Below, piece after piece: positions 18,739 through 38,602 of a stretch of DNA of 64,000 nucleotides (position 1 is the stretch's first letter; each line of letters begins with the position of its first letter). The notes below the pieces were generated by a model, which was not told where the DNA came from, did not search any database, and saw nothing but the letters and a program-made list of their open reading frames with translations. Source of the DNA: an uncultured Chloroflexia bacterium (lineage in GTDB: Bacteria > Chloroflexota > Limnocylindria > QHBO01); NCBI GenBank assembly GCA_963827475.1, contig CAWHAZ010000004.1, positions 96,001 through 160,000 of the forward strand. Direction: 5' to 3'. Made by a program: the position numbers and the translations under genes.

Positions 18739-19098
18739 ATGGACCAAACCGGACTGCTCTACGTCCTGGGTTTCGGCTTCGCCGCGACGACCTTCGTCTT
18801 CGGCACGATCATCTTTTCGTGGCTCGTGTCGCACCGGCGCAAGCAGGCCCAGAAGGGGCTGCCCTACGAGTGCGGGATCGACACCATCGGTGACACCTGG
18901 TCCCGCTTCGGACTGGCGTTCTACCTGTACGCCCTGCTGTTCGTCGCCTTCGACGTCGAGATCATCTTCATCTACCTGTGGGCGATCGTGATCCGCGACA
19001 TCGCGGTCAACGGGATCGTGTTGATGGGCATCTTCCTGGTGGTCCTGATGTATGGCGAGTTCTACGCCTGGAGGAAGGGGGACCTGCAGTGGCGGTAG
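18739..19098 (+). CDS. nuoA: NADH-quinone oxidoreductase subunit A
   Basis: PYECG, FYLYALLFVAFDVE, YAWRKGDLQW. Confidence 0.95.
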   Translation: MDQTGLLYVLGFGFAATTFVFGTIIFSWLVSHRRKQAQKGLPYECGIDTIGDTWSRFGLAFYLYALLFVAFDVEIIFIYLWAIVIRDIAVNGIVLMGIFLVVLMYGEFYAWRKGDLQWR

Positions 19099-19790
19099 AG
19101 CAGCCGAAGCGCGCCAAAGCGGCCTCGGTCGCCAAGGCGGCCGCCGACCCCAAGGACGCCCCGCCGCCGAGCACCGCGCTCGCCAAGCCGGAGGCCATCG
19201 TCATCCCCGATCCCACGGGCGACGACGACCTCCTGTCCGAGTTCGGGATGGAGGCCCACCCGCGCGGCGGCTTCCACGGCCTGCTGGAGGTCATCCCGAC
19301 CAGGGCGGACTACATCCTCGACCTGATCCGGGCCAACTCCCTGTGGCCGCTCCTGTCGGGGCTGTCGTGCTGCGCCATCGAGATGATGAGCACCGCCACC
19401 CCGATGAACGACATGGACCGCTTCGGGATGTTTCCGATGCGCGCCTCGCCGCGCCAGGCGGACGTCCTGATCGTGGCCGGCACGCTGACGACCAAGATGG
19501 CCGGCCCCCTCGTCCGGCTGTGGGCACAGATGCCCGAGCCGAAGTGGTGCGTGGCGATGGGCACCTGCACGACCAGCGGCGGGCGCTTCAAGCGCTCGTA
19601 CAGCGTGGTCCAGGGCGTGGACCGGGTCATGCCCGTCGACGTCTACGTGCCGGGCTGCCCGCCCCGCCCCGAGGGCCTGATCTACGGAATGATGAAGCTC
19701 CACGAGCTGGTCAAGCAGCGTCGCGGCCAGTGGGACACGTTCGCCGACCGCGGACCGGAGCTCCGTTCCTGGGAAGGAGACGTCCGCTGA
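19089..19790 (+). CDS. nuoB: NADH-quinone oxidoreductase subunit B
   Basis: SLWP, GLSCCAIEM, RASPRQAD, QMPEPKW, MGTC, VYVPGCPPRPE. Confidence 0.96.
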   Translation: MAVEQPKRAKAASVAKAAADPKDAPPPSTALAKPEAIVIPDPTGDDDLLSEFGMEAHPRGGFHGLLEVIPTRADYILDLIRANSLWPLLSGLSCCAIEMMSTATPMNDMDRFGMFPMRASPRQADVLIVAGTLTTKMAGPLVRLWAQMPEPKWCVAMGTCTTSGGRFKRSYSVVQGVDRVMPVDVYVPGCPPRPEGLIYGMMKLHELVKQRRGQWDTFADRGPELRSWEGDVR

Positions 19791-20365
19791 CCGCTCCCGC
19801 CGCGGCGGGGCCACTCGTCCGGCTGCTCGGTGACAAGCTCGGCGACGCGACGAGCCAGCTGTGGACCGATGAGGACACGGTCGAGGTCCAGGTCCCCGGC
19901 GACAAGATCGTCGAGACCCTTCGGACGCTCCGCGACGACCCCGACTTCGCGTTCTTCTTCCTGGCCGATGCGGCCGCGGTCGACTACGGGGTGGGCGAGC
20001 ACTTCGAGGTCGTCTACCACCTGCACTCCGACAGGCACCCGGTGTGGCTTCGTGTCCGCGTCCCGGTCGACCGCGAGAACCCGCTGACCCCGACCGTCAC
20101 CGGGCTGTGGGAAGGGGCGATGTTCCACGAGCGCGAGATGTACGACATGATGGGCATCGTCTTCCAGGGCAACCGGGACCTGCGCCGGATCTACATGTCG
20201 CCCGACTACCGATCCTTCCCGCAGCGGAAGGATTTCCTGCTCCCCGATGACGCCGCCGACTCCCCGGCTGCCGGCAACATGCCCCTCGAGCGCCCCGAGA
20301 CCTGGGACCTGACCCGGCTCGAGGAAGCGGCCGCCCACCGTGACGAGCCCGGGGGGCCGGTGTGA
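19787..20365 (+). CDS. nuoC: NADH-quinone oxidoreductase subunit C
   Basis: AVDY, FEVVYHL, EREMYDMMGIVF, LRRI, PQRKDF; probable CTG start after AGGAG. Confidence 0.9.
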   Translation: MTAPAAAGPLVRLLGDKLGDATSQLWTDEDTVEVQVPGDKIVETLRTLRDDPDFAFFFLADAAAVDYGVGEHFEVVYHLHSDRHPVWLRVRVPVDRENPLTPTVTGLWEGAMFHEREMYDMMGIVFQGNRDLRRIYMSPDYRSFPQRKDFLLPDDAADSPAAGNMPLERPETWDLTRLEEAAAHRDEPGGPV

Positions 20366-21684
20366 CGACGACGAAGGAACCGCGGGCCCGCAAGCCCCGG
20401 GCCAAGGCTCCGCCGGAGGACGAGGCCGCTCTCCGGGCAGCCGCCGAGGGGCGGATTCCCGACCCGATCGAGCTCGACGCCACGATGACCAGCCCCGCGG
20501 GGACGCGACGCCCGGAGTTCATGGGCTTCGACATCGTCCCGCCGCCCGACCGCCCCCCGCAGACCGAGCGCGAGCGCGAGGTCTACACCCTCGGCGACGG
20601 GGAGATGCTGGTGAACATGGGCCCGCAGCACCCGTCGACCCACGGCGTGATGCGGATCGTGCTCAAGGTCCGCGGCGAGGTCGTCATCGACCTCGACCCG
20701 GTGCTCGGATACCTCCACCGCGGCATCGAGAAGCTGTGCGAGAACGCGACCTACACCACGGTCCTGACCTACGTCGACCCCATGGACTACATGTCGGCGA
20801 TGCACAACGAGCACGCGCCGGCGCTCGCCTTCGAGAAGCTGTACGGGATCAAGGCGCCGCGGCGGGCGGAGTACATCCGGGCCCTGGTGGTGGAGCTGAA
20901 CCGGGTGTTCAGCCACGGCCTGATGATGGGCTTCCTGGCCCTCGACCTCGGCGGCCTGACGCCGATCCTGTACGGGTTCATCAACCGCGACCAGGTCGTG
21001 GACATGCTGTCGGCGATCTCCGGCCAGCGGATGCTGTTCAACTTCTTCCGGGTCGGCGGGGTGAACTTCGACGTGAACGACGAGTTCCTGTCCCGCCTCG
21101 GGAAGTGGCGCGCGGGCGTGCTCGACACGATCGAGATGAACGAGAAGCTGCTCACCGAGAACGAGATCTTCGGGGCCCGGACCAAGAAGATGGGCGTGCT
21201 GACCGGCCAGCAGGCCATCGACCTGGGCGTGTCCGGCCCCAACCTGCGGGCCAGCGGCGTGCCGTTCGACGTCCGCAAGGCCCATCCGTACCCGCCCTAC
21301 CCCGAGCTCGAGTTCGAGGTCATCACCCAGGAAGGCGGCGACACCTACGCGCGGTACATCCAGCGCATCGCGGAGCTGAAGCAGAGCATCCACCTCATCG
21401 ACCAGATCGTCGACCGCATGCCCCACGGCCCGGTCCAGGCCCAGGTGCCGGGCATCATCCGGCCTAGGCCAGGGCGGGCATACGCGGCGGTGGAGTCGCC
21501 CCGGGGGCTGTACAGCGTCTACGCCATCAGCGACGGCGGCCCGAACCCGTATCGGTTCCGCATGCGCGACCCAAGCTTCATCACCCTCCAGGTCATGCCC
21601 AAGGTCATGCCGGGCCGCCTGATCGCCGACACCATGGCGGTGATGGCCAGCCTGGACCCGATCATGGGCGGCGTGGACAAGTAG
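20362..21684 (+). CDS. nuoD: NADH-quinone oxidoreductase subunit D
   Basis: NMGPQHPSTHGV, GYLHRGIEK, GPNLRASG, ESPRG, DPIMGGVDK; no NiFe CxxC motifs, so not a hydrogenase. Confidence 0.96.
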   Translation: MTTTKEPRARKPRAKAPPEDEAALRAAAEGRIPDPIELDATMTSPAGTRRPEFMGFDIVPPPDRPPQTEREREVYTLGDGEMLVNMGPQHPSTHGVMRIVLKVRGEVVIDLDPVLGYLHRGIEKLCENATYTTVLTYVDPMDYMSAMHNEHAPALAFEKLYGIKAPRRAEYIRALVVELNRVFSHGLMMGFLALDLGGLTPILYGFINRDQVVDMLSAISGQRMLFNFFRVGGVNFDVNDEFLSRLGKWRAGVLDTIEMNEKLLTENEIFGARTKKMGVLTGQQAIDLGVSGPNLRASGVPFDVRKAHPYPPYPELEFEVITQEGGDTYARYIQRIAELKQSIHLIDQIVDRMPHGPVQAQVPGIIRPRPGRAYAAVESPRGLYSVYAISDGGPNPYRFRMRDPSFITLQVMPKVMPGRLIADTMAVMASLDPIMGGVDK

Positions 21685-21702: not shown

Positions 21703-22722
21703 ATGGACCAGGGCATGATCGACCTCATCCTTGGCATCGGCCGCTTCGTGGTCGCCACCACCCTGCTCCTGCTGCTCACGGTGCCGACCGCGTTCATCGT
21801 GATCCAGATGGAGATCAAGATCATCGCCCAGATGCAGCTGCGCTACGGCCCGAACCGGGTCGGGCCGCGGGGCATCTTCCAGAGCACGATCCACGGCTTC
21901 AAGTTCCTGGCCAAGGAGGACCAGACCCCGGATCGGGCGGACGTGCCGACGTTCACGCTGGCGCCGTGGATGGTGTTCATGGCCGCCGCCATGAGCCTGC
22001 TGGTCGTTCCCTTCGCGCCCGGCCTGGTGGCGTTCGACTCGCAGATCGGCGTCATCTACTTCTTCGCCGTCATCGGTCTGTCGGTGGTGGGGCTGCTGAT
22101 CGCCGGCTGGGCCAGCTACAACAAGTACTCGCTGCTCGGCGGGCTGCGGAGCGCGGCCCAGATGGTCAGCTATGAGATCCCGCTGACCCTGTCCATCGTG
22201 GGCGTGGTGGTCCTGACCGGGTCGCTGTCGTTCACCGAGATCGTGGAGTGGCAGCGCGAGCACGGGTGGGCGTTCCTGTGGCAGCTGGTCGGCTTCCCGA
22301 TCTTCCTCATTGCCGCCGCGGCGGAGATCAACCGCGCCCCGTTCGACATGATCGAGGCCGACAGCGAGATCGTCGCCGGCCCGTTCACCGAGTACAGCGG
22401 GATGCGGTTCGGGTTCTTCTTCTTCGCCGAGTACGTGGCCCTGTTCATCATGAGCGCCATCCTGGTCACCCTGTTCCTGGGCGGCTACCTCGCGCCGTGG
22501 CCGTTCCCCGCCACCCTCGACGGCTTCGTCGGAACCCTGTACGGCCTGTTCTGGTTCTTCGTGAAGACGTACTTCTTCGTCTTCGTCGCGGTCTGGGTGC
22601 GGGCCACCCTGCCGCGGGTCCGGGTTGACCAGCTGATGGGCGCGTCGTGGAAGGTGCTGCTCCCGCTGGCCCTCGTCAACCTGTTCCTCACGGCCATCGT
22701 CGTTCTCGCCCTCAACCTGTAA
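21703..22722 (+). CDS. nuoH: NADH-quinone oxidoreductase subunit H
   Basis: RYGPNRVG, NKYSLLGGLRSAAQMVSYE, AEINRAPFD, EYSG, RATLPRVR. Confidence 0.96.
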   Translation: MDQGMIDLILGIGRFVVATTLLLLLTVPTAFIVIQMEIKIIAQMQLRYGPNRVGPRGIFQSTIHGFKFLAKEDQTPDRADVPTFTLAPWMVFMAAAMSLLVVPFAPGLVAFDSQIGVIYFFAVIGLSVVGLLIAGWASYNKYSLLGGLRSAAQMVSYEIPLTLSIVGVVVLTGSLSFTEIVEWQREHGWAFLWQLVGFPIFLIAAAAEINRAPFDMIEADSEIVAGPFTEYSGMRFGFFFFAEYVALFIMSAILVTLFLGGYLAPWPFPATLDGFVGTLYGLFWFFVKTYFFVFVAVWVRATLPRVRVDQLMGASWKVLLPLALVNLFLTAIVVLALNL

Positions 22723-22732
22723 GGTTCGACCC

Positions 22733-23575
22733 ATGGCGATACCGGGCTCGGGCATGCTCACCGGCATGGGGGTGACCCTGCGGAACCTGTTCCGGCCCAA
22801 GGTGACGCTGCAGTACCCCGAGGAGCGGCCGCACATCCCCGACCGCTGGCGCGGGCGCCTGGACCTCATCTACGACCCGTTCGGCGAGCACAAATGCGAG
22901 GTCTGCTTCCAGTGCGCCCAGGTCTGCCCGGTCGAGGCCATCGACATGAGCGGGTTCGACAGCGAGGGCAACCGGATCCGATACGGCCTGCCGGAGATCT
23001 ACGACGAGCGGAAGGACCCCAATGCCTACCGTCGGGCCGGCCTGCCCGCTCGCCCGGAGCGCAACGCGGCCCGCTGGCAGGAGGACGTGGACAACGCCTG
23101 GGTCGACTCGGTGATCGACGGCTTCGGCGGCCGGCCCGAGTCGCTGGTCGCGATCTTCGGCGCGGTCCAGGCGAAGTACGGATACCTCCCCGAGCCGGCG
23201 TTGCGCCGGATCAGCGACCGGATGACGATCCACTGGGCCCAGGTCTTCGGCGCCGCCGGCCTGGGCGGGTTCCGGCTCCTGCCCGCCGAGGGCCACCTCG
23301 TGACCGTCTGCTCGTGCGCCGCCTGCCGCTTCGCCGGCGGGGACAGGCTCCTCGCCGCGCTCGAGGAGGAGCTCGGCATCCGGGCGGGCGAGGTGACCGA
23401 TGACGGGTCGTTCACCCTGGAGACCGATGCGAACGTGGGGTCGGGCGCGATCGCGCCGGCGGTCCGCATCGACACCCTGGTCTACGGGCCGCTCTCGGTG
23501 GACGAGGCGCGTCACCTGATCTACGCCCGCCGGGCCGAGGCAAGCCCAGCCGCCTCCGCCCCGGCCCGGGCCTGA
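22733..23575 (+). CDS. fusion of NuoI N-terminal half (one CxxCxxCxxxCP) to a degenerate NuoE/HydC thioredoxin-like domain
   Basis: VTLQYPEE..RWRG..CEVCFQCAQVCPVEAI, then VQAKYGYLP, VCSCAAC, LGIRAGEVTDDGSFTL, AP..YG. Confidence 0.85.
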   Translation: MAIPGSGMLTGMGVTLRNLFRPKVTLQYPEERPHIPDRWRGRLDLIYDPFGEHKCEVCFQCAQVCPVEAIDMSGFDSEGNRIRYGLPEIYDERKDPNAYRRAGLPARPERNAARWQEDVDNAWVDSVIDGFGGRPESLVAIFGAVQAKYGYLPEPALRRISDRMTIHWAQVFGAAGLGGFRLLPAEGHLVTVCSCAACRFAGGDRLLAALEEELGIRAGEVTDDGSFTLETDANVGSGAIAPAVRIDTLVYGPLSVDEARHLIYARRAEASPAASAPARA

Positions 23576-24939
23576 TGGCGGTCACCCTCTCCCCCCAGAT
23601 CCGGATCCTGGACGGGGGGCAGCAACGCCTCCTGAAGGGCATCGGGACCCTGGATCCCGGGTCGCTCGCCGCGTATCGCAAGGCCGGTGGCTACAAGGGT
23701 CTGACCCGGGCGGTGACCCAGCGGTCGCCGGACGAGGTCATCGGCGAGATGGCAGCCGCGCGTCTGCGGGGACGGGGTGGCGCCGGCTTCCCGGTCGCGG
23801 ACAAGTGGCGAGCCGCCCGATCGGCACCCGGCGACCGCAAGATCGTGGTCGCCAACCTGATGGGCGCCGACCCCACGTCCCTCGGCGACCGGACGCTGGC
23901 CGAGGGCAACCCGCATCTCGTCCTCGAGGGGGCGCTGATCGCCGCTGCCGCCGTCGGCGCCAGCGAGGCGATTCTCGCCGTCCGCCGCGACTGGACGCTG
24001 GCCATCGAGCGCCTGCGCGCCGCGGTGGCGGACGCGGAAGCGGCCCACCTGGCCGGCTACCTCATCCTCGGCACGGACGTCTCGGTATCGGTATCGGTCT
24101 GGGAAGGCTCCGGTGCCTACGTCGCCGGGGAGGAGACGGCCCTCATCCACGCCCTCCAGGGTGACCGCGGCATGCCGCTCATCCGGCCGCCCTACCCGGC
24201 CGAGCGCGGCCTGTGGGACGTGCCAACGGTCATCCACAACGCCGAGACGCTCGCCCACGTGGCCTGGATCGCCGGCCACTCGGCTGCGGAGTTCACGAAG
24301 GCCGGGACCGAGGCGGCGCCGGGCACCAAGCTGGTGACCGTCGCGGGTGCGGTGACGACGCCGGGCGTGGCCGAGGTGGCGCTGGGAACATCGGTCGAGA
24401 AGGTCATCAGCCTGGCTGGAGGCTCGACGGGGACGGTCAAGGCCGCGTTCATCGGCGGCCCCGGGGCTGGCGCCCTCGCCGCCGACGAGCTGTCCGCCAC
24501 CGCCTACGCGTACGACGAGCTGGCGGAGGTCGGCGGCCACATCGGCTCGGGAACGGTGCTGGTCACCGACGCCGGCACCTGCATGGTGGCCACCGCCCGC
24601 TTCCTGCTCGACTTCTCGGCCCGCGAGGCGTGCGGCAAGGCCGTTCCCTGCCGCATCGGCACCCGCCGCCTGGTAGAGGCCCTCGACCGGATCCTGGCCG
24701 CGACCCCACGCCCCAATGACCTGGTCCTGCTCCGCGAGCTGTCGGCGAAGATCGCGGACACCGCCCTGTGCCGCCTGGAATCGCTCGCTCCGCGGCCGAT
24801 GCTCACGACCCTCGATCGGTTCGCCGACGAGTACCGCGCCCACGCCGAACGCGGGGTGTGCCTCGCCGGCTCGTGCTCGACCGATGCGGTCCTGCCGCTG
24901 CTGACCCCGCTGGCCGAAGCCGTAGGATTGGACCGATGA
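23575..24939 (+). CDS. nuoF: NuoF/HydB-family flavoprotein subunit, degenerate
   Basis: LRGRGGAGFP, GNPHLVLEG, GAYVAGEETAL, PPYPAERGLW, EACGKAVPCRIG, FADEYRAH..CLAGSC; TGATG-coupled. Confidence 0.85.
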   Translation: MAVTLSPQIRILDGGQQRLLKGIGTLDPGSLAAYRKAGGYKGLTRAVTQRSPDEVIGEMAAARLRGRGGAGFPVADKWRAARSAPGDRKIVVANLMGADPTSLGDRTLAEGNPHLVLEGALIAAAAVGASEAILAVRRDWTLAIERLRAAVADAEAAHLAGYLILGTDVSVSVSVWEGSGAYVAGEETALIHALQGDRGMPLIRPPYPAERGLWDVPTVIHNAETLAHVAWIAGHSAAEFTKAGTEAAPGTKLVTVAGAVTTPGVAEVALGTSVEKVISLAGGSTGTVKAAFIGGPGAGALAADELSATAYAYDELAEVGGHIGSGTVLVTDAGTCMVATARFLLDFSAREACGKAVPCRIGTRRLVEALDRILAATPRPNDLVLLRELSAKIADTALCRLESLAPRPMLTTLDRFADEYRAHAERGVCLAGSCSTDAVLPLLTPLAEAVGLDR

Positions 24940-27320
24940 CCTTCGTCGGCAACGGCAATGGCAAGGGCAACGGCAAGGGCGCCGAGCACATGGAGGACTA
25001 CGCGCCGATCTGGCCGGTCGTCCCCGGCACCCGACCGATCACGGTCACGATCAACGGCCGCCAGGTCCAGGCCGAGGAGGGGCAGACCATCCTCCAGGCC
25101 TGCCGGGTGTTGGACATCGAGATCCCGACCCTGTGCTACGAGCCGAAGCTCTCGCCCTACGGGGCCTGCCGCATCTGCGTGGTCGAGGTCGAGGGCGAGG
25201 AGAACACGCCGATCTCGTGCGGGACGAAGGTCGCGGACGGGATGGTCATCACCACCCACTCGGAGCGGGTCATCGAAAACCGCCGCCTGGTGCTGGAGCT
25301 GATCTTCTCGGACCACGACGCGTACTGCCTGCCGCCGTGCCAGTTCAAGTGCCCGACCCGGGTCGACATCCCCGGCTACCTGAAGGCCAACGCGGAGGGC
25401 AACTGGGAAGAGGCGACCCGGATCCTGAAGCGGTCCCTGCCCTTCCCGGCCATCCTCGGCCGGGTCTGCCCCGCCCCGTGCGAGACCCACTGCCGGCGCG
25501 AGGAGGTCGACATCGCGATCGCCATCCGCGACTCGCATCGCTACTGCGCCGACCGCGTGCTCGAAGTCGACGCGCCAGCCCCCCTGCCGTGGCCGAAGGA
25601 GCCGCCCACCGGGCGGCGGGTCGCGGTGGTGGGCTCCGGACCGGCCGGGATGACGGTCGCGTACTACCTCCAGCTCCGCGGCCACCAGTGCGACGTGTTC
25701 GAGGCCGACCCGGAGCAGGGCGGCATGCTGCGCTACGGAATTCCCGAGTACCGCCTGCCGAAGGCGTGGATGGACCGCGAGCTGAACCACGTCTGGGAGC
25801 TGGGCGCCACGTTCCGGCCGAACATGCGGCTCGGGCGCGACTTCCACCTCGCGGACCTGCTCGACCAGGGCTACGACGCGGTGTTCGTGGGCACGGGCTG
25901 CTACAAGTCGAACGAGCTGGGCATCCCCAACGAGTTCGCGGACGGGACGGTCAACGCCCTCGAGAACCTCTACAACAGCACCCGCGGCGTCCCCGTCCCG
26001 CAGCTGAAGGGGGCGCGAGTGGTGGTCATCGGCGGTGGGTTCACCGCCATCGACTGCACACGGACCTCGCTCCGCCAGGGCGCGGAGGCGGTCACCATCG
26101 TCTATCGCCGCGACCTGAAGGACATGCCGTCGCAGGACGAGGTCCACGAGGCGATCGAAGAGGGCGCGACGGTCATCTTCCAGGCCGCACCGGTCCGCAT
26201 CGTGACCGACGCCAAGGGTCGGGTGACCGGGGTCGAGTTCCAGAAGATGCACCTCGGCGAGCCCGACGAGAAGGGTCGCCGCCGGCCGGAGCCGATGCCC
26301 GGCACCGAGTTCATCGTCGAGTGCGACACCGTGCTGGGGGCCATCGGCCAGGGTCCGGAGCTGAGCTGGGTCGACCTCGAGCCGGACGAGATCCGCGGCG
26401 GGCTGGAGGTCAGCCGCCAGGGTCGCCTGGTCGCCGACCCGAACACCTTCCGCACCGGCGTCCCTCAGGTTTTTGCCGCCGGCGACGTGAACCTCGGCGC
26501 CACGACCGTGGTCGAGGCCATCGGTGACGGCCGCCGCGCCTCGTATGCGATGGACTACTGGCTCCGTGGCCACGACCTCGATGACCCGCAGGTCCGCCGC
26601 ATCGTGTCCGAGCCCCAGCCCTCGTTCCTGACCATCGTGCCCTTCACCGACGACGTGAAGGAGCCCCAGGCGGTGATGGGCAAGAAGGGGCCGGAGGAGC
26701 GGAGCGACAACTTCGGGGAGTACGAGTACGGCTACACCCACGACCAGGCGATGGGCGAGGCGGCCCGCTGCCTGCAGTGCACGTGCGAGGCGATCGGCCA
26801 CTGCGACCTCCGCGAGGCGGCGATCGAGTACGAGACCACGCTGAACATGGCGATCGACGAGCGGTCGATCCAGGACAACCCGTACGTCGGCATCAACCAC
26901 GGCTACGGCCGGGACGAGACCCACTCGTTCATCCTCCGCGACTACAGCCGGTGCATCGACTGCGGCCGCTGCGCCCAGGTGTGCAAGGACATCGTGGGCG
27001 CCGGCTGCTACGACTTCATCGGCAAGGGCTTCGACTCATTGGTCACCACCGCGGACTTCGTCTCGCTGAACGAGACGCCGTGCGTGTCGTGCGGTCGGTG
27101 CGCGGAGACGTGCCCGGTCGGGGCCCTCATGCCGCGGCCGCGGATCCTGGAGACCTATCAGCTCGACGTCAGCCGCTGCATCTTCTGCGGCATCTGCGCC
27201 GACGCCTGCCCGTACGACGCGCTGCGCTGCGGCCCCGAGTTCGAGTTCAGCGAGTACCAGCGCGATCTGCCGATGCTCGACATCCTCGAGATGTCCGACC
27301 GGGAGCGGCCCACCCGCTAG
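24936..27320 (+). CDS. NuoG/HydA-type Fe-S module with inserted GltD/SudA/NfnB-like FAD-NAD(P)H domain and C-terminal NuoI half
   Basis: [2Fe-2S] IPTLC..GACRICVVE..SC; HDAYC; PCQFKCP; LGRVCPAPCE; GSGPAG; GGMLRYGIPEYRLP; GGGFTA; VYRR; AGD; EAARCLQC; CIDCGRCAQVC; CVSCGRCAETCP; YQLDVSRCIFCGICADACPYDAL..EFE. Confidence 0.88.
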   Translation: MTFVGNGNGKGNGKGAEHMEDYAPIWPVVPGTRPITVTINGRQVQAEEGQTILQACRVLDIEIPTLCYEPKLSPYGACRICVVEVEGEENTPISCGTKVADGMVITTHSERVIENRRLVLELIFSDHDAYCLPPCQFKCPTRVDIPGYLKANAEGNWEEATRILKRSLPFPAILGRVCPAPCETHCRREEVDIAIAIRDSHRYCADRVLEVDAPAPLPWPKEPPTGRRVAVVGSGPAGMTVAYYLQLRGHQCDVFEADPEQGGMLRYGIPEYRLPKAWMDRELNHVWELGATFRPNMRLGRDFHLADLLDQGYDAVFVGTGCYKSNELGIPNEFADGTVNALENLYNSTRGVPVPQLKGARVVVIGGGFTAIDCTRTSLRQGAEAVTIVYRRDLKDMPSQDEVHEAIEEGATVIFQAAPVRIVTDAKGRVTGVEFQKMHLGEPDEKGRRRPEPMPGTEFIVECDTVLGAIGQGPELSWVDLEPDEIRGGLEVSRQGRLVADPNTFRTGVPQVFAAGDVNLGATTVVEAIGDGRRASYAMDYWLRGHDLDDPQVRRIVSEPQPSFLTIVPFTDDVKEPQAVMGKKGPEERSDNFGEYEYGYTHDQAMGEAARCLQCTCEAIGHCDLREAAIEYETTLNMAIDERSIQDNPYVGINHGYGRDETHSFILRDYSRCIDCGRCAQVCKDIVGAGCYDFIGKGFDSLVTTADFVSLNETPCVSCGRCAETCPVGALMPRPRILETYQLDVSRCIFCGICADACPYDALRCGPEFEFSEYQRDLPMLDILEMSDRERPTR

Positions 27321-27766
27321 CCCGCGTCCGCGGCGCTCCGGGACGGTGTCGCGCGGTTGAACCCGAAGCGGAGGAGCCGGAACAGCAGGTAGCCGATCAG
27401 CGCGCCAACGACGTTCAGGAGGACGTCGTCCACGTCGGTCATCCGGTTCGGGATCCGCAGCTGGGCGAGCTCGATCGCGACGCTGAGCACGACCGCCACC
27501 AGCAGGACTCGGGCCCACCCGTTCATCGCCGGGAACGCGATCGGTCCGAGCAGACCGACCGGGAGCAGGAGCAGGAGGTTCCCGATCAGCTGGCCGGCCC
27601 AGAACGGGGACTCGAGGTTGTCGAGGTAGACCTGGATCGTCCGGAACAGGACGAAGTTGTCATCCACGATGAAGCCAGGCGGCGGTTCCACGGGCTGCAG
27701 GGTCATGAGCAGTCCAAGGGCCAACCACGCCGCCAGGAGCACGCCGGCGGTCACACGGGCAGTCAT
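27317..27766 (-). CDS. VanZ-family membrane protein
   Basis: GNLLLLLPVG, SVAIELAQ, RMTDVDDVLLNVVGA. Confidence 0.88.
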   Translation of the reverse strand: MTARVTAGVLLAAWLALGLLMTLQPVEPPPGFIVDDNFVLFRTIQVYLDNLESPFWAGQLIGNLLLLLPVGLLGPIAFPAMNGWARVLLVAVVLSVAIELAQLRIPNRMTDVDDVLLNVVGALIGYLLFRLLRFGFNRATPSRSAADAG

Positions 27767-27837
27767 CGGCCGCCCAGTCTGTCAGCCCCGGCGGTTTTCT
27801 GCCGATGCGGGGCGCCGGGCGGTATCCTCGGCGGCGC

Positions 27838-28254
27838 ATGGCCGATCTCCCCCAGCAGCCGATCGAGATGATCCTGCTCCGCCAGCTGGCGGAGCACCTC
27901 GGCATCCCGGTGTGGGTCATCGACAGCGCCGGCGACCTGGTGTTCTTCAACGAGGCCGCCGAGCCCACGCTCGGGTTGCGGGCAGATGACGTGGACCAGA
28001 TGCCGTACGAGGCGTGGACGACCGGGTTCGCGCCACGGGACCTCGCCGGCAACCCGGTTCCCGGTGAGGCGCTGCCGCCGATCAAGGCCCTGCGCGAGGG
28101 AAAGCCGCAGCACGACTCGCTCGAGATCACCGGCGCCGACGGCGTGGCCCGCCAGATCGTGATCACCGCCTTCCCGTTGACCGGCGGGCACGGGGACATC
28201 ATGGGGTCGGTCACGATGTTCTGGGAGTCGAACGGGGAGTCGGAACAGGCGTGA
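27838..28254 (+). CDS. stand-alone PAS-domain protein
   Basis: PVWVIDSAGDLVFFNEAAEPTLG, terminal TAFPL..GSVTMFW; GTGA-coupled to the MBL hydrolase. Confidence 0.8.
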   Translation: MADLPQQPIEMILLRQLAEHLGIPVWVIDSAGDLVFFNEAAEPTLGLRADDVDQMPYEAWTTGFAPRDLAGNPVPGEALPPIKALREGKPQHDSLEITGADGVARQIVITAFPLTGGHGDIMGSVTMFWESNGESEQA

Positions 28255-29084
28255 TCGTCCGGCTGTGGGGCACGCGAGGCTCGGTCGCGAGCGCCGGTCC
28301 CCAGACGGCCCGCTACGGCGGCAACACGGCCTGCGTCGAGGTCCGGGGCGACGACGGCTGCCTGGTCGTCCTCGACGCCGGCACCGGCATCCAGCGCCTG
28401 GGCAACGAGCTGGAGGACGACATCCATCGCATCGACATCCTGCTCACCCACCTCCACATGGACCACATCCAGGGCCTGGGTTTCTTCGCCCCGATCTTCC
28501 GCAAGGGCTGCGAGATCCACGTCTGGGGTCCCCCATCGCCGACGCTCCACCTCCGCGCCCGGGTCACCCGCTACATGTCGCCCCCGTTGTTCCCGATCCG
28601 CCTGCGCGACCTGCGGGCCAACTTCGAGTTCCATGACGCCCCGCAGGACCCGTTCACCATCGGTTCGTTGACCATCAAGGCCGACGAGGTCATCCACCCC
28701 GGCGCCACCCTCGGCTATCGGGTCAGCGAGAACGGCCGGTCACTCACCTATCTCAGCGACCACGAGCCGGCGCTGGCCGCCAACAACGGCGAGCCCGGCC
28801 CCGGCTGGATCAGCGGCCTGGCCCTTGCCCACGACGCGGACGTGCTCATCCACGATGCGCAGTACACCCAGTCCGAACGCGAGGAGCGGCTCGGCTGGGG
28901 GCACTCCTCGGTCCCGGAGGCCATCGACTTCGCCCGCACCGCGGCCGCCAAACAGCTCGTCCTGTTCCACCACGACCCCGCGCGGACCGACCACCAGATG
29001 GACCTTCTCCTTGCTGAGGCGGAGGCTCTCGCGGACGGAATGCCGGTGACGGCCGCGCGCGAGGGTGACGTGCTCGTCCTTTAG
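28251..29084 (+). CDS. MBL-fold metallohydrolase (WGTRGS family, putative phosphodiesterase)
   Basis: WGTRGS, YGGNTAC, DAGTG, THLHMDHIQG, HPG, DHE, HDAQY, WGHS, FHHDP. Confidence 0.88.
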   Translation: MIVRLWGTRGSVASAGPQTARYGGNTACVEVRGDDGCLVVLDAGTGIQRLGNELEDDIHRIDILLTHLHMDHIQGLGFFAPIFRKGCEIHVWGPPSPTLHLRARVTRYMSPPLFPIRLRDLRANFEFHDAPQDPFTIGSLTIKADEVIHPGATLGYRVSENGRSLTYLSDHEPALAANNGEPGPGWISGLALAHDADVLIHDAQYTQSEREERLGWGHSSVPEAIDFARTAAAKQLVLFHHDPARTDHQMDLLLAEAEALADGMPVTAAREGDVLVL

Positions 29085-29113: not shown

Positions 29114-29656
29114 GTGAGCGCTCAGCCCGAACGGAGAGTCTCGGCTCTGGACATCTCGATCGTCCTCTTCGTGGTGCTCGCCGTCGGCGTCCTCGGCGGT
29201 GGCCTGGCGGCCGTGCTCCTGCGGAACGTCATTCATTCCGCGGTGGCCATGATGTTCTGCTTCGGCGCGCTCGCCGGGACCTACGCGCTGCTTGGCGCAC
29301 CGATCGTGGCGGCGGCACAGGTCCTGATCTACCTCGGCGCGATCAGCGTCCTGATCCTGTTCGCGATCATGCTCACCCAGGCTGGCGACGCGAACCTGCC
29401 CGCCCCATTCCAGCGCCAGGCGCCGGTGGCGGCGCTGGTCGCGCTCGGGATCGTGTTCCTTGTCGGCTGGGCCATCGTCAGCACCGACTGGCCGAACGCC
29501 ACCGTCGTGATCGCGGTTGACCTCAACAAGCTGGCGACCGCCATCTTCACCGACTACGCCCTGCCCTTCGAGATCGTGGCCTTCCTGCTGCTGGCCGCGA
29601 TCATCGGCGCCATCTACCTGGCCCGACGGCCCGAAGAAGACGAGCGGGCGAACTGA
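29114..29656 (+). CDS. nuoJ: NADH-quinone oxidoreductase subunit J
   Basis: RNVIHSA, AQVLIYLGAISVLILFAIML, YALPFEI; candidate own promoter TAGAAT at 29082. Confidence 0.94.
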   Translation: MSAQPERRVSALDISIVLFVVLAVGVLGGGLAAVLLRNVIHSAVAMMFCFGALAGTYALLGAPIVAAAQVLIYLGAISVLILFAIMLTQAGDANLPAPFQRQAPVAALVALGIVFLVGWAIVSTDWPNATVVIAVDLNKLATAIFTDYALPFEIVAFLLLAAIIGAIYLARRPEEDERAN

Positions 29657-29659: not shown

Positions 29660-29968
29660 ATGGGCCTGCCCGCGTACCTGTTCCTCTCCCTGCTCCTGTT
29701 CGGGATCGGAGCCTTTGGGTTCCTCGCCCGGCGCAACGCGATCATGATGCTGATCTGCATCGAGTTGATGCTGAACGCGGTGAACCTCGCCCTCGTCGCG
29801 TTCAACGCGTTCGACTACGGCGCGACGAATGACGCGGGCGCGGTCTTCTCCCTCCTGATCATGGCCGTCGCCGCGGCCGAGGCGACGGTGGGGCTGGCGC
29901 TGGTCATCGCCATCATCCGGACCCGTCAGACCCCCGAGGTCGACGAGTACTCCGACCTCAAGGAGTGA
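29660..29968 (+). CDS. nuoK: NADH-quinone oxidoreductase subunit K
   Basis: RRNAI, IELMLNAVNL, VAAAEATVGLA. Confidence 0.96.
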   Translation: MGLPAYLFLSLLLFGIGAFGFLARRNAIMMLICIELMLNAVNLALVAFNAFDYGATNDAGAVFSLLIMAVAAAEATVGLALVIAIIRTRQTPEVDEYSDLKE

Positions 29969-29972: not shown

Positions 29973-32210
29973 CTGACACCGGAGCAGCTCATCCCACTCA
30001 TCCCGGCCCTGCCGCTCGTCGGCTTCCTGTTCGCGGTCCTCCTCGGGTCGCGTCTCGACCGCATTCCCGAGCACGGTGACCACGGGGATGGGCACGGAGC
30101 GGGGGCCGGCCACGACACCGGCGGAGACCCGCACGCGTCGCACGACGAGGCGGTGGACGAGTCCGCGTTCCGCACGATCCCGACCGAGGAGGAACAGCGC
30201 GAGACCTCGCCCCACCGGGGCCACGCCGACGACCTGGCCAACGCCAACGGGGCAGATGGGGTCATCCCGGACGAGCTGAACGACGGACGGGGCCAGCCCG
30301 GCCACGTCTCCCCGGGCGGGCCGCGACCGGTCTACCGCTCGTGGTGGGTCCCCGTGGCCCTTGTCGCGCTCATGTGGGCCGCGGCCATGGTCGTGTTCGG
30401 ATCGGTCATCTTCGACGGTGCCGAGTACCGGGTCACCGTCTACGAGTGGATCGTGTCCGGCGACTTCCGGGTCGAGATCACGTTCTTCGTCGACGCGCTC
30501 ACCGCGGTCCTGCTCCTGGTCGTCAGCACGGTCGGCCTCCTCGTCCACGTCTACTCCATCGGCTACATGGACGGCGACCGGAGCGTGTGGCGCTTCTTCG
30601 CCTACCTGAACCTGTTCATGTTCAGCATGCTGCTGCTGATCCTGGCCGACAATTTCCTGCTGCTGTACGTCGGCTGGGAAGCGGTGGGCCTGTGCTCGTA
30701 CCTGCTCATCGGCTACTGGTACAAGAAGCCCTCGGCCGCCGGGGCCGCCAAGAAGGCGTTCATCGTCAACCGGGTTGGCGACTTCGGATTCGGGCTCGGC
30801 GTGATCCTGATCTGGACGTTGCTCGGCACCCTCGCGTTCGAGGAGGTGTTCGCCGGTGTCGGCGGGCTGGAGGAGTGGCAGGTCACGCTCATCGCGCTGC
30901 TCCTGTTCGCGGGCGCGGTCGGCAAGTCCGCCCAGTTCCCGCTCCACGTCTGGCTTCCCGACGCGATGGAGGGGCCGACCCCGGTCAGCGCCCTGATCCA
31001 CGCCGCGACGATGGTCAACGCCGGCGTCTACCTGGTGGCGCGCTCGAACCCGATCTTCGCCGAGGCCCCGACCGCCATGGCGGTGGTCGCGGCCATCGGT
31101 GTCTTCACCGCCGTCCTGGCCGCGGCCATCGCGCTGACTCAGAACGACATCAAGAAGGTCCTCGCCTACTCGACCGTGAGCCAGCTGGCATACATGTTCT
31201 TCGGGCTGGGCATCGGGGCGTGGGTGGCGGCCATCTTCCACCTGCTGGCCCATGGCTTCTTCAAGGGCCTGCTGTTCATGGCGTCGGGATCGGTCATCCA
31301 TGGCGCCGGCGGCGAGCAGGACATGCAGCTCATGGGCGGGCTGCGGGAAAAGATGCGCTGGACCTACGTGACCATGGTCATCGGGTCGCTGGCCCTGGCC
31401 GGCATCCCGATCTTTGCCGGGTTCTTCAGCAAGGACGAGATCCTGTCGGAGGCGTTCCTGCGCGGCTACGGGGTCTACTGGCTGATCGGGATCGTCGTCG
31501 CGTTCATGACCGCGTTCTACACGTTCCGGATGATCTACCTCACCTTCCACCGATCCTGGCGCGGCCCGGCCGAGGCGTGGCACCACGTCCACGAGAGCGG
31601 ATGGACGATGGTCGTCCCGCTGGTCATCCTGGCCGTGCCCACCGCCCTGGCCGGCCTCCTGCTCGGCATTCCGCCCGAGAGTGGGGCCATCCACACCTGG
31701 CTCGAGGAGGTCTTCGCCGGAGCCGAGGCACTGGGAACGGGCATCCTCCCCGGCTCTATCGCCGCCGAGGCGCTCGAGCATGGTGAAGCCCACGCATTCG
31801 AGCTCTTCGGGCTCGGCGGCCTGCTGCTCCTCGTCGGCGCGGGCATGGGGGTCGGCGGCATCCTGCTCGCCCGCCGCTGGTACGTCCAGAACCCGGAGGC
31901 ACCGGTCCGCTTCGTCGAGCGCATCCCGTTCGGCCTGGGGCCGGGCATGTACCGCGCCAGCGTGAACAAGTACTACTTCGACGACCTGTACCAGCTCCTG
32001 TTCGCGCGGGGCGGCGTCCTCGTCTCGAACATGCTGTGGTGGTTCGACGTCAAGGTCATCGACGGGTTCGTCAACGGCACGGGCTCGGTAGCGGAGTGGA
32101 TCGGCGGGATCCTCCGCCGCCTCCAGACCGGGCGGGTCCAGAACTACGGGCTGGGCATCGCGGCCGGCCTGGTGATCGTCCTGCTGGTCTACGCCACGGT
32201 GGTCCGCTGA
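29973..32210 (+). CDS. nuoL: NADH-quinone oxidoreductase subunit L with long His/acidic insertion after TM1
   Basis: Frame is open back to LTPEQLIPLIPALPLVGFL (TM1); YSIGYM, GWEAVG, NRVGD, GKSAQFPLHVWLPDAMEGPTPVSALIHAATMV, DIKKVLAYST, LQTGRVQNY. Start is CTG 29973 or ATG 29968 with a lost C. Confidence 0.93.
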   Translation: MTPEQLIPLIPALPLVGFLFAVLLGSRLDRIPEHGDHGDGHGAGAGHDTGGDPHASHDEAVDESAFRTIPTEEEQRETSPHRGHADDLANANGADGVIPDELNDGRGQPGHVSPGGPRPVYRSWWVPVALVALMWAAAMVVFGSVIFDGAEYRVTVYEWIVSGDFRVEITFFVDALTAVLLLVVSTVGLLVHVYSIGYMDGDRSVWRFFAYLNLFMFSMLLLILADNFLLLYVGWEAVGLCSYLLIGYWYKKPSAAGAAKKAFIVNRVGDFGFGLGVILIWTLLGTLAFEEVFAGVGGLEEWQVTLIALLLFAGAVGKSAQFPLHVWLPDAMEGPTPVSALIHAATMVNAGVYLVARSNPIFAEAPTAMAVVAAIGVFTAVLAAAIALTQNDIKKVLAYSTVSQLAYMFFGLGIGAWVAAIFHLLAHGFFKGLLFMASGSVIHGAGGEQDMQLMGGLREKMRWTYVTMVIGSLALAGIPIFAGFFSKDEILSEAFLRGYGVYWLIGIVVAFMTAFYTFRMIYLTFHRSWRGPAEAWHHVHESGWTMVVPLVILAVPTALAGLLLGIPPESGAIHTWLEEVFAGAEALGTGILPGSIAAEALEHGEAHAFELFGLGGLLLLVGAGMGVGGILLARRWYVQNPEAPVRFVERIPFGLGPGMYRASVNKYYFDDLYQLLFARGGVLVSNMLWWFDVKVIDGFVNGTGSVAEWIGGILRRLQTGRVQNYGLGIAAGLVIVLLVYATVVR

Positions 32211-33751
32211 TGAGCGGCATCGACACCAGCGGCTTGCCCGTGCTGTCGCTGATCGTGTTCACCCCGCTCATCGGGGTCGCAGCGCTGCTGCTGATCCCCG
32301 GGCGGCGCCATCGGCTGATCCGCTGGGTGGCCCTCCTGGCGGCCCTCGCCAGCCTCGGCTTCAGCCTGCTCCTGCTCGGCTACGACCCGGCTGGTCCGGA
32401 GTTCCAGTTCCGCGAGGACATCCCGTGGATCGACGCCTTTGGCATCCGCTACACGCTCGGGGTGGACGGGATGAGCGCGGTCCTGATCCTGCTCACCACC
32501 GTCCTGAGCGTGGTCGCGATCCTCTACTCCTGGGACCCCATCCAGAACCGGATCAAGGAGTACTACGCCGCGATGCTGCTCCTGATGACCGGCATGCTCG
32601 GCGTGTTCGTCGCCCTCGACCTGTTCGTGTTCTACGTCTTCTGGGAGCTGAGCCTGATCCCGATGTACCTGGTCATCGGGATCTGGGGTGGGCCGAACCG
32701 GATCTACGCCACGGTCAAGTTCGTCATCTACACCCTGGTCGGCTCGCTGCTCATGCTGGTGGCCATCCTGGCCGTGGTCATCGCCCACGCCAACCTCGCG
32801 GGCGGGACGTTCACGTTCAGCTACGAGGCCCTGCGGGGCGTGCCGTACCCCGACCTCCTGCAGGCCGCGGCGTTCATCGCATTCGGCCTGGCGTTCGCCA
32901 TCAAGGTCCCCATGTGGCCGTTCCACACCTGGCTGCCCGATGCCCACGTCGAGGCGCCGACCGCCGGCTCGATCATCCTGGCCGGCGTCCTGCTCAAGCT
33001 CGGCGGCTACGGCTTCCTGCGGTTCTCCATCCCCCTGCTGCCCGACGCGGCCGCCAGCTTCGCGCCGATCATGATCGGCCTGGCGCTGATTGCGATCCTG
33101 TATGGGGCGCTGGTGGCCATGGTCCAGCCCGACCTCAAGAAGCTCATCGCCTACTCGAGCGTGTCGCACATGGGCTTCGTCATCCTCGGGGCGTTCGTCT
33201 TCAACCAGCAGGGGATGCAGGGGGCCATCTTCCAGATGGTCAGCCACGGGATCACGACCGGGGCCCTGTTCCTCCTGGTCGGGGTGATCTACGAGCGCAC
33301 CCACGATCGGATGATCGCCCACATGGGCGGGCTGAACGCCCGCCTGCCGGCCTACGCCGCCCTGTTCGGGCTGTTCACCTTCGCGTCCATCGGCTTGCCG
33401 GGGCTGGCCGGGTTCGTGGGCGAGTTCCTCGTCATGCTGGGAGCGTTCCAGTACTCGGGCTGGGTCGCGGCCTGGGCGATGCTGGTGGTCATCGCCAGTG
33501 CGGTCTACATGCTCTGGATGTTCCAGCGGGCGTTCTTCGCCGTCCCGTCGGACTGGATGCGACGGGCATGGAACGGCCTCCACGACCTGACCCGGATCGA
33601 GTGGCTGTCGCTCGCCCCGCTGGTCATCCTGGTCGTCGCCCTCGGCGTCTTCCCGATGCCGGTGCTGGAGGCCACCGCCGCCCCGGTGGAGCGGATACTC
33701 GACGTGGTGCAGTCGGCCGGCGGCCTGGACGCGGTGGCCTGGCCATGGTGA
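32210..33751 (+). CDS. nuoM: NADH-quinone oxidoreductase subunit M
   Basis: LGVDG, FWELSLIPMY, KVPMWPFHTWLPDAHVEAPT, LLKLG, AYSSVSHMG, GFVGEF; single copy. Confidence 0.96.
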   Translation: MSGIDTSGLPVLSLIVFTPLIGVAALLLIPGRRHRLIRWVALLAALASLGFSLLLLGYDPAGPEFQFREDIPWIDAFGIRYTLGVDGMSAVLILLTTVLSVVAILYSWDPIQNRIKEYYAAMLLLMTGMLGVFVALDLFVFYVFWELSLIPMYLVIGIWGGPNRIYATVKFVIYTLVGSLLMLVAILAVVIAHANLAGGTFTFSYEALRGVPYPDLLQAAAFIAFGLAFAIKVPMWPFHTWLPDAHVEAPTAGSIILAGVLLKLGGYGFLRFSIPLLPDAAASFAPIMIGLALIAILYGALVAMVQPDLKKLIAYSSVSHMGFVILGAFVFNQQGMQGAIFQMVSHGITTGALFLLVGVIYERTHDRMIAHMGGLNARLPAYAALFGLFTFASIGLPGLAGFVGEFLVMLGAFQYSGWVAAWAMLVVIASAVYMLWMFQRAFFAVPSDWMRRAWNGLHDLTRIEWLSLAPLVILVVALGVFPMPVLEATAAPVERILDVVQSAGGLDAVAWPW

Positions 33752-38597: not shown

Positions 38598-38602
38598 ACA
38601 TC

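Follow-up and report, generated by a model that had tools for sequence, protein, structure and literature searches.

Complex I is among the best-studied bioenergetic enzymes, and to our knowledge the set of 14 core subunits, like the NuoEFG head, is regarded as near-invariant wherever the enzyme oxidises NADH. In the canonical enzyme the iron-sulfur (FeS) cluster N5 in NuoG hands electrons to N6a. Here we describe a complex I locus with a different head, encoded on a 64,000 nucleotide stretch of DNA from an uncultured Chloroflexia bacterium of the Limnocylindria (assembly GCA_963827475.1, contig CAWHAZ010000004.1, positions 96,001 to 160,000). This whole stretch is called the window below, and coordinates refer to it unless another locus is named. 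The protein at the centre of the study, G* (24936-27320, 794 aa), stands in the place of NuoG. Its neighbours are a NuoE-like domain, E', which shares a polypeptide with the N-terminal half of NuoI, I_N, and a NuoF-like protein, F'; f1, f2 and so on are genome families. We consider it fairly probable that the locus encodes a real respiratory complex I that carries a head of the Stn/Nfn (Bfu) type inside nuoI and would work as a non-bifurcating NAD(P)H:quinone oxidoreductase.

The known relatives used for comparison are StnABC and NfnABC ("Nfn-Bfu"; PDB 8oh5, 9bov and 9n5u; PMC10482914 and PMC12018979). In brief, sections 7-9 of PMC10482914 describe StnABC as a reversible enzyme in which electrons pass from NADPH to the flavin adenine dinucleotide (FAD) of StnC, through the StnC clusters, and on to the flavin mononucleotide (FMN) of StnB. 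Section 9 reports that the StnC FAD is non-bifurcating and that Lys170 of StnC is a cluster ligand. A side branch, C1/C2, leads towards a dead formate-dehydrogenase domain and is described, in the parts of that paper used here, as a non-functional remnant. Section 7 of PMC12018979 names AFM and GGPSG as signatures of the FMN site, with AFM conserved in bifurcating enzymes, and links Glu-286 to NADH selectivity.

Two further systems come nearest among published ideas, as far as the portions of the two papers used here go. Complex I forms with BfuABC heads, termed Nuo-Bfu, were predicted by Schut et al. 2022 (PMC9304861); there they are 14-subunit A-N complexes of Deferribacteres, Proteobacteria, Planctomycetes and Nitrospirae built around a complete, bifurcating BfuBC core, and a ferredoxin-type domain was required of BfuB. 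Neither NuoI nor GltD is mentioned in the main text of that paper. In the Mbx-like complexes of Degli Esposti 2015 (PMC4758237), a GltD-type NAD(P)H flavoprotein is tied to the NuoI position. According to that source, this GltD relative takes the place of the NuoI homologue in complexes of the Mrp type that are linked to sulfur or hydrogen, and acts as a site of NAD(P)+ reduction, whereas in the window NuoI is kept but split, in a quinone-reducing Nuo context. Our literature searches turned up neither a split NuoI nor a nuo operon whose head bears a GltD domain; the supplementary tables of Schut et al. 2022 lay outside this search and could list such operons.

The head genes lie inside nuoI

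The gene order on the plus strand is nuoA, nuoB, nuoC, nuoD, nuoH, the 280 aa fusion I_N-E', F', G*, a PAS-domain gene, a gene for a metallo-beta-lactamase (MBL)-fold hydrolase, nuoJ, nuoK, nuoL, nuoM and nuoN, as identified by Pfam. NuoI is encoded in two parts, one at each end of the head genes. The N-terminal half makes up residues 1-100 of the I_N-E' fusion (22733-23032) and carries the first CxxCxxCxxxCP motif (C55, C58, C61 and C65). It matches positions 1-72 of the NuoI model TIGR01971 with an E-value of 3.6e-16. The C-terminal half forms residues 733-794 of G* (27132-27317), carries the second CxxCxxCxxxCP motif (C748, C751, C754 and C758) and matches positions 71-112 of the same model. 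On the protein side these matches cover the first 83 residues of the fusion and residues 736-777 of G*. NuoI/TYKY chains in the PDB match residues 8-79 of the fusion, and the NuoI-specific N-terminal stretch ahead of the cluster motif (model positions 1-40) is kept.

A search of the organism's own genome with the NuoI model returned these halves as the two best matches, the N-terminal one (positions 1-73) at 60.4 bits and the other at 47.6 bits, against a cut-off of 113. None of the six matches exceeded the cut-off, so an intact NuoI on one polypeptide was not found in this genome. When the halves were aligned as separate rows with six canonical NuoI proteins of Chloroflexota, they covered the protein end to end, with the break in the hairpin between the two motifs. 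The eight NuoI cysteines are retained on two proteins, in 73 of 73 loci for the N-terminal half and in 63 of 63 for the C-terminal half.

Both an assembly or frameshift artefact and a recent mobile insertion were ruled out as causes of the split. The fusions are in frame, and they recur across 121 genomes of five families and in Ktedonobacteria. This most unusual feature of the design had been missed by an earlier, sequence-only reading of the window. A complex prediction for residues 1-100 of the E' polypeptide with residues 733-794 of G*, made with alignments and two [4Fe-4S] clusters and without controls, scored 0.26, below the mark of 0.32.

G* is a NuoG-type protein with an inserted GltD domain

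The sequence-only reading had proposed that a chimera of the NuoG N-terminal region and a GltD-like flavoprotein takes the NuoG position within a full nuo locus. Both parts of this proposal hold: nuoA, nuoB, nuoC, nuoD and nuoH lie upstream and nuoJ to nuoN downstream, and the genome has no NuoG above the family cut-off, the sole matches being G* itself at model positions 1-95 and 97-203.

G* is encoded as a single open frame on the plus strand, as are the other genes of the locus. Its N-terminal [2Fe-2S] domain is N1b-like (25032-25262; Pfam Fer2_4 at residues 33-109, E 1.2e-22), with C67, C78, C81 and C95 invariant in 11 orthologues. A His/Cys motif, H127-x3-C131-x3-C135-x3-C139-P (25314-25355), follows. 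It opens with HDAYC (127-131, 25314-25328), marks the onset of the GltD domain and is invariant both in the alignment of 11 orthologues and in 63 of 63 loci; the Pfam model NADH-G_4Fe-4S_3 matches here, at residues 116-132, with its first 17 positions only. The GltD/NfnB-type domain (25329-26570) comprises Fer4_20 (132-210), which accounts for two predicted [4Fe-4S] sites, and Pyr_redox_2 (228-532), with the FAD motif GSGPAG (233-238) and the NADPH motifs GGGFTA (366-371) and TIVYRR (387-392); GGMLRYGIP (262-270) and AGD (515-517) lie in the same domain. Past the insert the interrupted cluster motif resumes as CLQCTC..CDL (612-625), in which C612-x2-C615-x-C617-x5-C623 (26769-26810) aligns with 9bov_A and StnC and is invariant in the 11 orthologues. 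A ferredoxin domain with two [4Fe-4S] sites of the NuoG/HydA type comes next (26931-27128; Fer4_Nqo3 at 666-731), its cysteines C673..C683 and C716..C726-P again invariant, and about 20 residues later it runs on into the C-terminal half of NuoI.

This layout, a [2Fe-2S] domain, a GltD insert within the His/Cys motif and then FeS motifs, had been recognised in the sequence-only reading and is borne out by translation and Pfam, with each motif that it named, HDAYC included, at its place. The same is true of the loss of the NuoG molybdopterin domain, since a Pfam scan found no such domain in G*. The count of FeS motifs needs correction: C-terminal to the insert there are three CxxCxxCxxxC motifs (673-683, 716-726 and 748-758) and not two, the third being that of NuoI.

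The 11 orthologues are 46-86% identical. All cluster cysteines, His127, both glycine motifs, Arg273, Tyr-Arg-Arg 390-392 and His201 are invariant among them, and the 63 further Limnocylindria loci with coverage of those 13 positions all have the same residues there. The architecture is thus not a product of chance, since cluster ligands and nucleotide motifs are invariant in both sets. In terms of family, G* has the three marks of the GltD/NfnB group, namely Fer4_20, the GxGxxG FAD motif and the GxGxxA plus YRR NADPH motif. Many GltD-type NCBIfam families match it, every one below its cut-off (best PRK12814, 548 against 916), and the NuoG model TIGR01973 scores 98 against a cut-off of 470.

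The best PDB matches of G* are StnABC/NfnABC chains, collinear over residues 33-759: 9bov_A (E 9e-169), 8oh5_C (StnC of Sporomusa ovata, 9.1e-148) and 9n5u_A (NfnA, 4.5e-140). The relevant relatives are hence StnC and NfnA of the Bfu family and not the free NfnB suggested by the sequence-only reading. Its hint at a bifurcating FAD likewise finds no support, because the FAD of StnC is reported to be non-bifurcating (PMC10482914, section 9). Its NADP(H)-type signature fares better: GxGxxG, GxGxxA and YRR match the NADPH-dependent StnC, as does R273, the counterpart of StnC Arg239, and from these shared motifs a preference of G* for NADPH appears likely. Two StnC residues are exchanged, Lys170 for His201 and Cys114 for Ile145.

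F' and E' are trimmed StnB- and StnA-like subunits

The gene for F' (23575-24939) encodes a 454 aa FMN/NADH subunit that corresponds to the BfuB/StnB core. Its Pfam domains are Complex1_51K, SLBB and NADH_4Fe-4S only. Against the PDB it scores 383.9 bits with 9bov_B and 379.6 bits with 8oh5_B; matching B chains range from 384 to 353 bits, and Nqo1 of Thermus thermophilus reaches 251.3 bits. The match spans residues 105-527 of the 584-residue StnB-type chains. Neither the N-terminal thioredoxin-like/[2Fe-2S] domain nor the C-terminal ferredoxin domain with two [4Fe-4S] sites was found in F' by Pfam or PDB alignment. With the NuoF model TIGR01959 the score is 319 against a cut-off of 559.

The FMN loop RGRGGAGFP and the motif GEET are present in the window, and RGRGGxG together with GEET or GEES is kept in 12 of 12 split-type F' proteins that cover them. 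By our own motif alignment, the second Glu of GEET is the counterpart of Glu-286 of PMC12018979. The NADH site is probably present, because F' keeps this loop and GEET. The AFM signature is replaced by SLG, and GGPSG reads GGPGAG in the window and GGP[SAT]GG in other families. Over the whole core, F' proteins of f2-f4, f10, f20, f25, f29 and f47 are 34-45% identical to that of the window; within f1 the identity is 68-69%.

The I_N-E' gene extends over 22733-23575, and NuoE/HoxE-type NCBIfam models match its product from residue 116. The E' part (23078-23527) is a BfuC/StnA-like domain on the same polypeptide as I_N, with a Pfam 2Fe-2S_thioredx match at residues 125-263 (E 1.2e-23). The nuoE_fam model scores 58 against a cut-off of 142. 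The best PDB match is 9bov_C (1.1e-23), in which "aClGccslAP" stands opposite "aNvGsgaiAP". E' lacks the second cysteine pair of the [2Fe-2S] site, two of the four cysteines, and this pair is absent in 62 of 62 loci. The tblastn match to E' ends near residues 153-185 of 280 in f2, f10, f20, f25, f29 and f47, which points to a truncated thioredoxin-like part in f2 and in the families beyond the class.

Comparison with known systems

The best PDB matches of G*, F' and E' alike are thus chains of StnABC/NfnABC. The two systems have in common the three proteins, their gene order and the GltD domain inserted in a NuoG-N protein at the same point. StnABC and NfnABC are soluble, whereas in the window each end of the module is joined to one half of NuoI, within a nuo operon. 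The molybdopterin-like C-terminal domain that they carry is gone from G*. The N-terminal [2Fe-2S] and C-terminal 2x[4Fe-4S] domains are missing from F', E' has no [2Fe-2S] cluster site left complete, and AFM is replaced. The C1/C2 side branch of Stn lies on the side of the protein that in G* extends into NuoI.

G* has the features of BfuA, and the head lacks the ferredoxin-type domain of BfuB, the C1 cluster of BfuC and the AFM/GGPSG signatures. With Nuo-Bfu, as far as it is described in the parts of PMC9304861 used here, the locus shares a Bfu-type module in place of NuoEFG, a position in the middle of the nuo cluster and predicted menaquinone reduction. It falls outside that group as there described, because the features of BfuB, including the ferredoxin-type domain that F' lacks, and of BfuC are missing and NuoI is split.

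Eleven core subunits, the quinone-site and N2 motifs and a flavoprotein head encoded in the operon are shared with canonical 14-subunit complex I (Nqo1-15 of T. thermophilus, Nuo of Escherichia coli). The canonical NuoI is one polypeptide; here it is two. The canonical head genes lie between nuoD and nuoH, whereas here they lie between nuoH and nuoJ, inside nuoI, and the family models for NuoE, NuoF and NuoG all score below cut-off. The head in the window has an extra flavin, FAD, with a putative NADPH site, and it has neither a molybdopterin-fold domain nor an N1a cluster.

The complex I locus and its genome context

The locus encodes eleven core subunits: NuoA, B, C, D, H, J, K, L, M and N, and NuoI as two halves. 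The genes upstream of the head are nuoA (18739-19098; Pfam Oxidored_q4, E 9.8e-32), nuoB (18978-19790 as open reading frame, real start probably later; Oxidored_q6 at residues 131-241, E 7.4e-28), nuoC (19052-20365 as open reading frame, with Complex1_30kDa in the final third at residues 279-398, E 8.3e-36, and a real start probably near 19800), nuoD (20362-21684; Complex1_49kDa, E 1.7e-81) and nuoH (21703-22722; NADHdh, E 4.2e-111). Downstream are nuoJ (29114-29656; Oxidored_q3), nuoK (29660-29968; Oxidored_q2), nuoL (30153-32210), nuoM (within 32036-33751) and nuoN (33780-35261), the last three each with a Proton_antipo_M match. All are on the plus strand. Packing around the head is tight: the start of F' shares one base with the preceding stop codon, and the ATG of G* overlaps the stop codon of F' by 4 nt.

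NuoD is of the quinone-reducing type and scores 413.7 bits with the NCBIfam model PRK06075, for which the cut-off is 360. It has the motifs HPSTHG and DPMDY and lacks the C-terminal cysteine pair for NiFe. NuoB has SCCAIEM, GTCT and GCPP, that is all N2 cysteines. We take the His and Tyr of the NuoD motifs to belong to the quinone site and the NuoB cysteines to be the N2 ligands, as is generally assumed for these residues. With these motifs kept, the quinone-reducing core is probably competent.

The genome (1.92 Mb, 90% complete) has one NuoH match, that of the window, with no second copy found, and one NuoF-like gene. Because there is one NuoH, no NuoG and one NuoF-like gene, the locus is the only complex I of this genome. 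PntB, the membrane subunit of the proton-translocating transhydrogenase, is encoded at G000:C7:104195-105562, and this gives the organism a second route for exchange between NADH and NADPH.

Contigs from RNA libraries of one rhizosphere study (four metatranscriptome runs) held 31-41% of the sampled words. They covered the operon in 30 of 30 bins in three runs and in 29 of 30 in the fourth (X3), with low depth at 27572-28138, and some span the junction of nuoH and I_N-E' and that of F' and G*. This hints weakly at expression of the operon; DNA carry-over is possible in RNA libraries, and assembled contigs are no proof of transcripts.

Two extra genes between G* and nuoJ, for the PAS-domain protein (27805-28254) and the MBL-fold hydrolase (28251-29084; both Pfam), are outside the conserved design. 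The same slot is empty in families f3 and f4. In a sister genus it holds a gene for a 461 aa fusion of an SRPBCC (polyketide-cyclase-like) domain and an NAD(P)H-binding short-chain dehydrogenase/reductase (L025, 11963-13348), a protein that presumably resembles the quinone-binding COQ10 and the accessory protein NDUFA9. Elsewhere in the window, 37925-40846 encodes a 636 aa fusion of CDP-alcohol phosphatidyltransferase and myo-inositol-1-phosphate synthase followed by a homologue of lipid A-type acyltransferases; these genes may belong to a pathway for inositol lipids or inositol-phosphate solutes. In a 578 aa protein encoded at 13685-15421, a SpoIIIAA-like AAA ATPase is joined to phosphotyrosine phosphatase and R3H domains.

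Distribution and gene arrangements

A G* orthologue was found in 41 of 41 relatives, and the split design recurs in all 121 sampled Limnocylindria genomes. An intact NuoI was found in four of the 121 (G039, G080, G083 and G094); in the others, among the matches listed, NuoI is half-length only, at model positions 1-62/77 and 69/71-112. Two of the four were inspected. G039 has an additional canonical 14-gene operon (L214). In G094 the canonical operon is in pieces (L213), and the fragmented matches to NuoD and NuoF suggest frameshifts, decay or assembly errors. Among 401 Chloroflexota genomes searched with a profile of the I_N-E' fusion, the fusion was found in 46 of 46 members of the class sampled and, among the matches listed, in at least 45 genomes of five other families (28 in f25, 11 in f29, four in f10, one in f47 and one in f20). 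It should be noted that the 41-, 121- and 401-genome tallies include 15 unpublished genomes; no claim depends on any single one. The labels of ten diverged clusters of I_N-E proteins ("ferredoxin" or "NuoE", from Chloroflexota or Limnocylindria) added no further taxa.

The order A-B-C-D-H-[I_N-E']-F'-G*-J-K-L-M-N is common to families f1, f3 and f4. In f2 one locus holds B-D-[I_N-E']-F'-G* and another A-C-H-J-K-L-M-N, together one full set with no duplicates and no gaps. Directly downstream of the first of these loci lies a Methyltransf_28 gene (L021, 7786-9630, minus strand). This family is taken to include NDUFAF7/MidA, a complex I assembly factor that methylates the NuoD homologue. The only piece of f5 seen was a contig end that carries F' and G*.

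Families f25 and f29 are Ktedonobacteria. Named carriers are Thermogemmatispora carboxidivorans PM5, T. tikiterensis T81 and Ktedonobacter racemifer DSM 44963, and species of Dictyobacter, Thermosporothrix, Tengunoibacter and Ktedonosporobacter also carry the fusion. Here the design is dispersed: nuoB-[I_N-E']-F'-G* form one cluster of four genes and A-C-D-H another, in addition to a canonical 14-gene operon with an intact NuoI. Such loci were seen at L045 (9419-14678), L204 (5161-9347) and L206 (Thermogemmatispora carboxidivorans). No J-N genes were found within the 20 kb fetched around the split clusters. Beside the nuoB-[I_N-E']-F'-G* cluster of Thermogemmatispora a divergent gene encodes an isocitrate/isopropylmalate dehydrogenase (L045, 7927-9132, minus strand). 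Bacterial isocitrate dehydrogenases usually make NADPH.

In unrooted trees of Chloroflexota proteins a single branch separates split-type from canonical copies of the same phylum, with support of 100/98 for NuoD (13 split-type and 4 canonical rows), 96/94 for NuoH (14 and 6) and 96/89 for NuoB (13 and 4). The trees exclude L213 and all rows that match less than 70% of the window protein (40% for NuoB). The split systems thus appear to be a distinct lineage of NuoD, NuoH and NuoB.

Related cassettes occur in Thermoleophilia/Actinomycetota, and no nuo genes were found within 9 kb in four of four loci inspected. In a metagenome-assembled genome of Thermoleophilia (L308, 6811-14942) an E-F-G*/GltD cassette lies inside an operon for pyruvate:ferredoxin oxidoreductase (POR), with genes for POR gamma, a delta ferredoxin and POR alpha. 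Its F protein (641 aa) has the full extra domains of Bfu, and the C-terminus of its G* is fused to the thiamine pyrophosphate-binding POR beta domain. The same module seems here to have been spliced into another FeS enzyme.

Proposed function and alternatives

We suggest that the head is a trimmed three-protein Stn/Nfn module, made of E', F' and G* with its GltD domain, that stands in place of NuoEFG. It would descend from a module of the Nfn/Stn type, because chains of StnABC/NfnABC are the best matches of all three proteins. The NuoI halves, the N-terminal one on the E' polypeptide and the C-terminal one on G*, would reassemble into the usual domain with two [4Fe-4S] clusters, which we take to be N6a and N6b. 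Reassembled in this way, NuoI would fasten the head to the NuoB/C/D/H core and also pass electrons on. The FAD of the GltD domain would take electrons from NADPH, and the FMN of F' probably from NADH. Both inlets would feed a single FeS chain that leaves the head through the ferredoxin domain of G*, and electrons would travel on via the split NuoI and N2 in NuoB to (mena)quinone, with NuoL, NuoM and NuoN pumping protons. The parts needed for bifurcation are gone. The enzyme would be a plain NAD(P)H dehydrogenase, because the flavobicluster, the [2Fe-2S] of E', and the ferredoxin path of the Bfu enzymes are lost. Of the earlier idea that FAD and NADPH are wired directly to the NuoI clusters, the connection stands, as G* is fused to the C-terminal half of NuoI; the FAD would not be the sole inlet, given that the genes for E' and F' lie directly upstream.

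Several points weigh against this proposal. The N3/B1 motif of F' reads CGKAVPC, with Ala for the second cysteine, and across 76 Limnocylindria loci this position is Ala in 58, Thr in 10, Ser in six and badly aligned in two. Because this cysteine is replaced, the FMN branch may be altered or weak. All four N3 cysteines are intact in f2, f20, one f3 genome (L019) and four Ktedonobacteria-type loci. The Asp of the NADE stretch beside FMN is Met in the window and Tyr or Ile in other families. The exit geometry is not transferable from known structures, because the N5-type motif carries the GltD insert. A single-chain model of G* from the 11-row alignment (mean predicted local distance difference test score, pLDDT, 58.7; predicted template modelling score, pTM, 0.53) is confident only at about residues 220-555, and residues 559-794 score below 50, which gives no geometry for the C-terminal part. 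Redox balance does not strictly call for an NADPH inlet, because the genome has PntB, and in Ktedonobacteria, beside a canonical operon, the role of the split system may differ. Substrate, direction, pumping and assembly are all read from sequence.

The changes in F' and E' raise the question whether the FAD of the GltD domain is the sole working inlet of an NADPH-driven complex I, with F' and E' left as a scaffold that ties the head to the N-terminal half of NuoI. In favour of this are the incomplete [2Fe-2S] site of E' in all 62 loci, the apparent loss of its thioredoxin-like part in f2, f10, f20, f25, f29 and f47, the Ala, Thr or Ser at the second N3/B1 cysteine in 74 of 76 Limnocylindria loci, and the replacement of AFM and of the acidic NADE residue, while every residue checked in the GltD domain is invariant. 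We nevertheless find it unlikely, since the FMN loop and GEET/GEES are retained in 12 of 12 split-type F' proteins that cover them, the four N3 cysteines are intact in the loci named above, and an identity of F' of 34-45% across families (68-69% in f1) exceeds what a scaffold needs. The complex might also run mainly in reverse, making NADPH from quinol and proton motive force, or act as an NADH/NADPH transhydrogenase through the shared FeS chain. Two nucleotide sites on one chain recall the reversible StnABC, as it is described in the parts of PMC10482914 used here. The design occurs in Ktedonobacteria, a class for which excerpts of two papers describe atmospheric chemosynthesis or aerotrophy, a lifestyle that would need NADPH from high-potential donors. 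As the only complex I of Limnocylindria, however, it must work at least in part as a forward NAD(P)H dehydrogenase, the genome already has PntB, and the sequence sets no direction; a mainly reverse or transhydrogenase role is in our judgement quite improbable.

The Bfu descent of the head also invites comparison with an electron-confurcating enzyme that oxidises NAD(P)H and reduced ferredoxin together, as proposed for the Geobacter-type Nuo-Bfu; complex I with BfuABC heads is indeed what Schut et al. 2022 predicted, in the parts of PMC9304861 used here. In all 62 loci, though, the flavobicluster is without its [2Fe-2S] cluster C1, both terminal domains of BfuB are absent, the ferredoxin-binding one at the C-terminus included, and the AFM signature is replaced, which leaves confurcation scarcely credible. 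It is very improbable as well that the head is a soluble enzyme that is merely encoded in the operon, with the NuoI halves as dead remnants or in the service of that enzyme alone. The Thermoleophilia/Actinomycetota cassettes, four of four without nuo genes within 9 kb, and the one in the POR operon do indicate that the module can serve other partners. A soluble head, however, would leave complex I without N6a/N6b in nearly the whole class, as 117 of 121 genomes have no intact NuoI. The N-terminal half also retains the NuoI-specific stretch at model positions 1-40, and in Ktedonobacteria and f2 the cassette lies together with nuoB, in some cases also with nuoD, exactly the genes that are missing from the other locus.

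Beyond the proposal of a non-bifurcating NAD(P)H:quinone oxidoreductase, we tentatively put forward, as a conceivable but somewhat doubtful extension, that complex I acquired a head a second time, independently of NuoEFG. A soluble two-flavin Nfn/Stn module would have been spliced into nuoI, the halves of which would serve as clamp and wire, and the pump would couple NADPH, and NADH, to the quinone pool. Run in reverse, such a complex could yield NADPH from quinol in trace-gas-oxidising Ktedonobacteria. The cassette may then be a portable plug-in for FeS enzymes, given the POR operon of Thermoleophilia.

Significance

The proteins of this head carry automatic annotation labels such as "NuoE", "formate dehydrogenase major subunit" and "glutamate synthase subunit". 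The design can be tested at the bench now, because cultured Ktedonobacteria (Thermogemmatispora, Ktedonobacter and Dictyobacter) carry it. It is a lineage-wide form of complex I in which a core FeS subunit is encoded on two polypeptides, the head appears to be of other descent and a dedicated NADPH site is predicted. This bears on the evolutionary recruitment of the N-module, on whether a proton-pumping complex I can be driven by NADPH, or can make it, and on the share of the NuoG scaffold that docking of a head requires. It is also relevant to metabolic models of Limnocylindria, which are common in soil and freshwater metagenomes. If the head works as we suggest, it would represent an undescribed way of plugging a fuel inlet into a proton pump.

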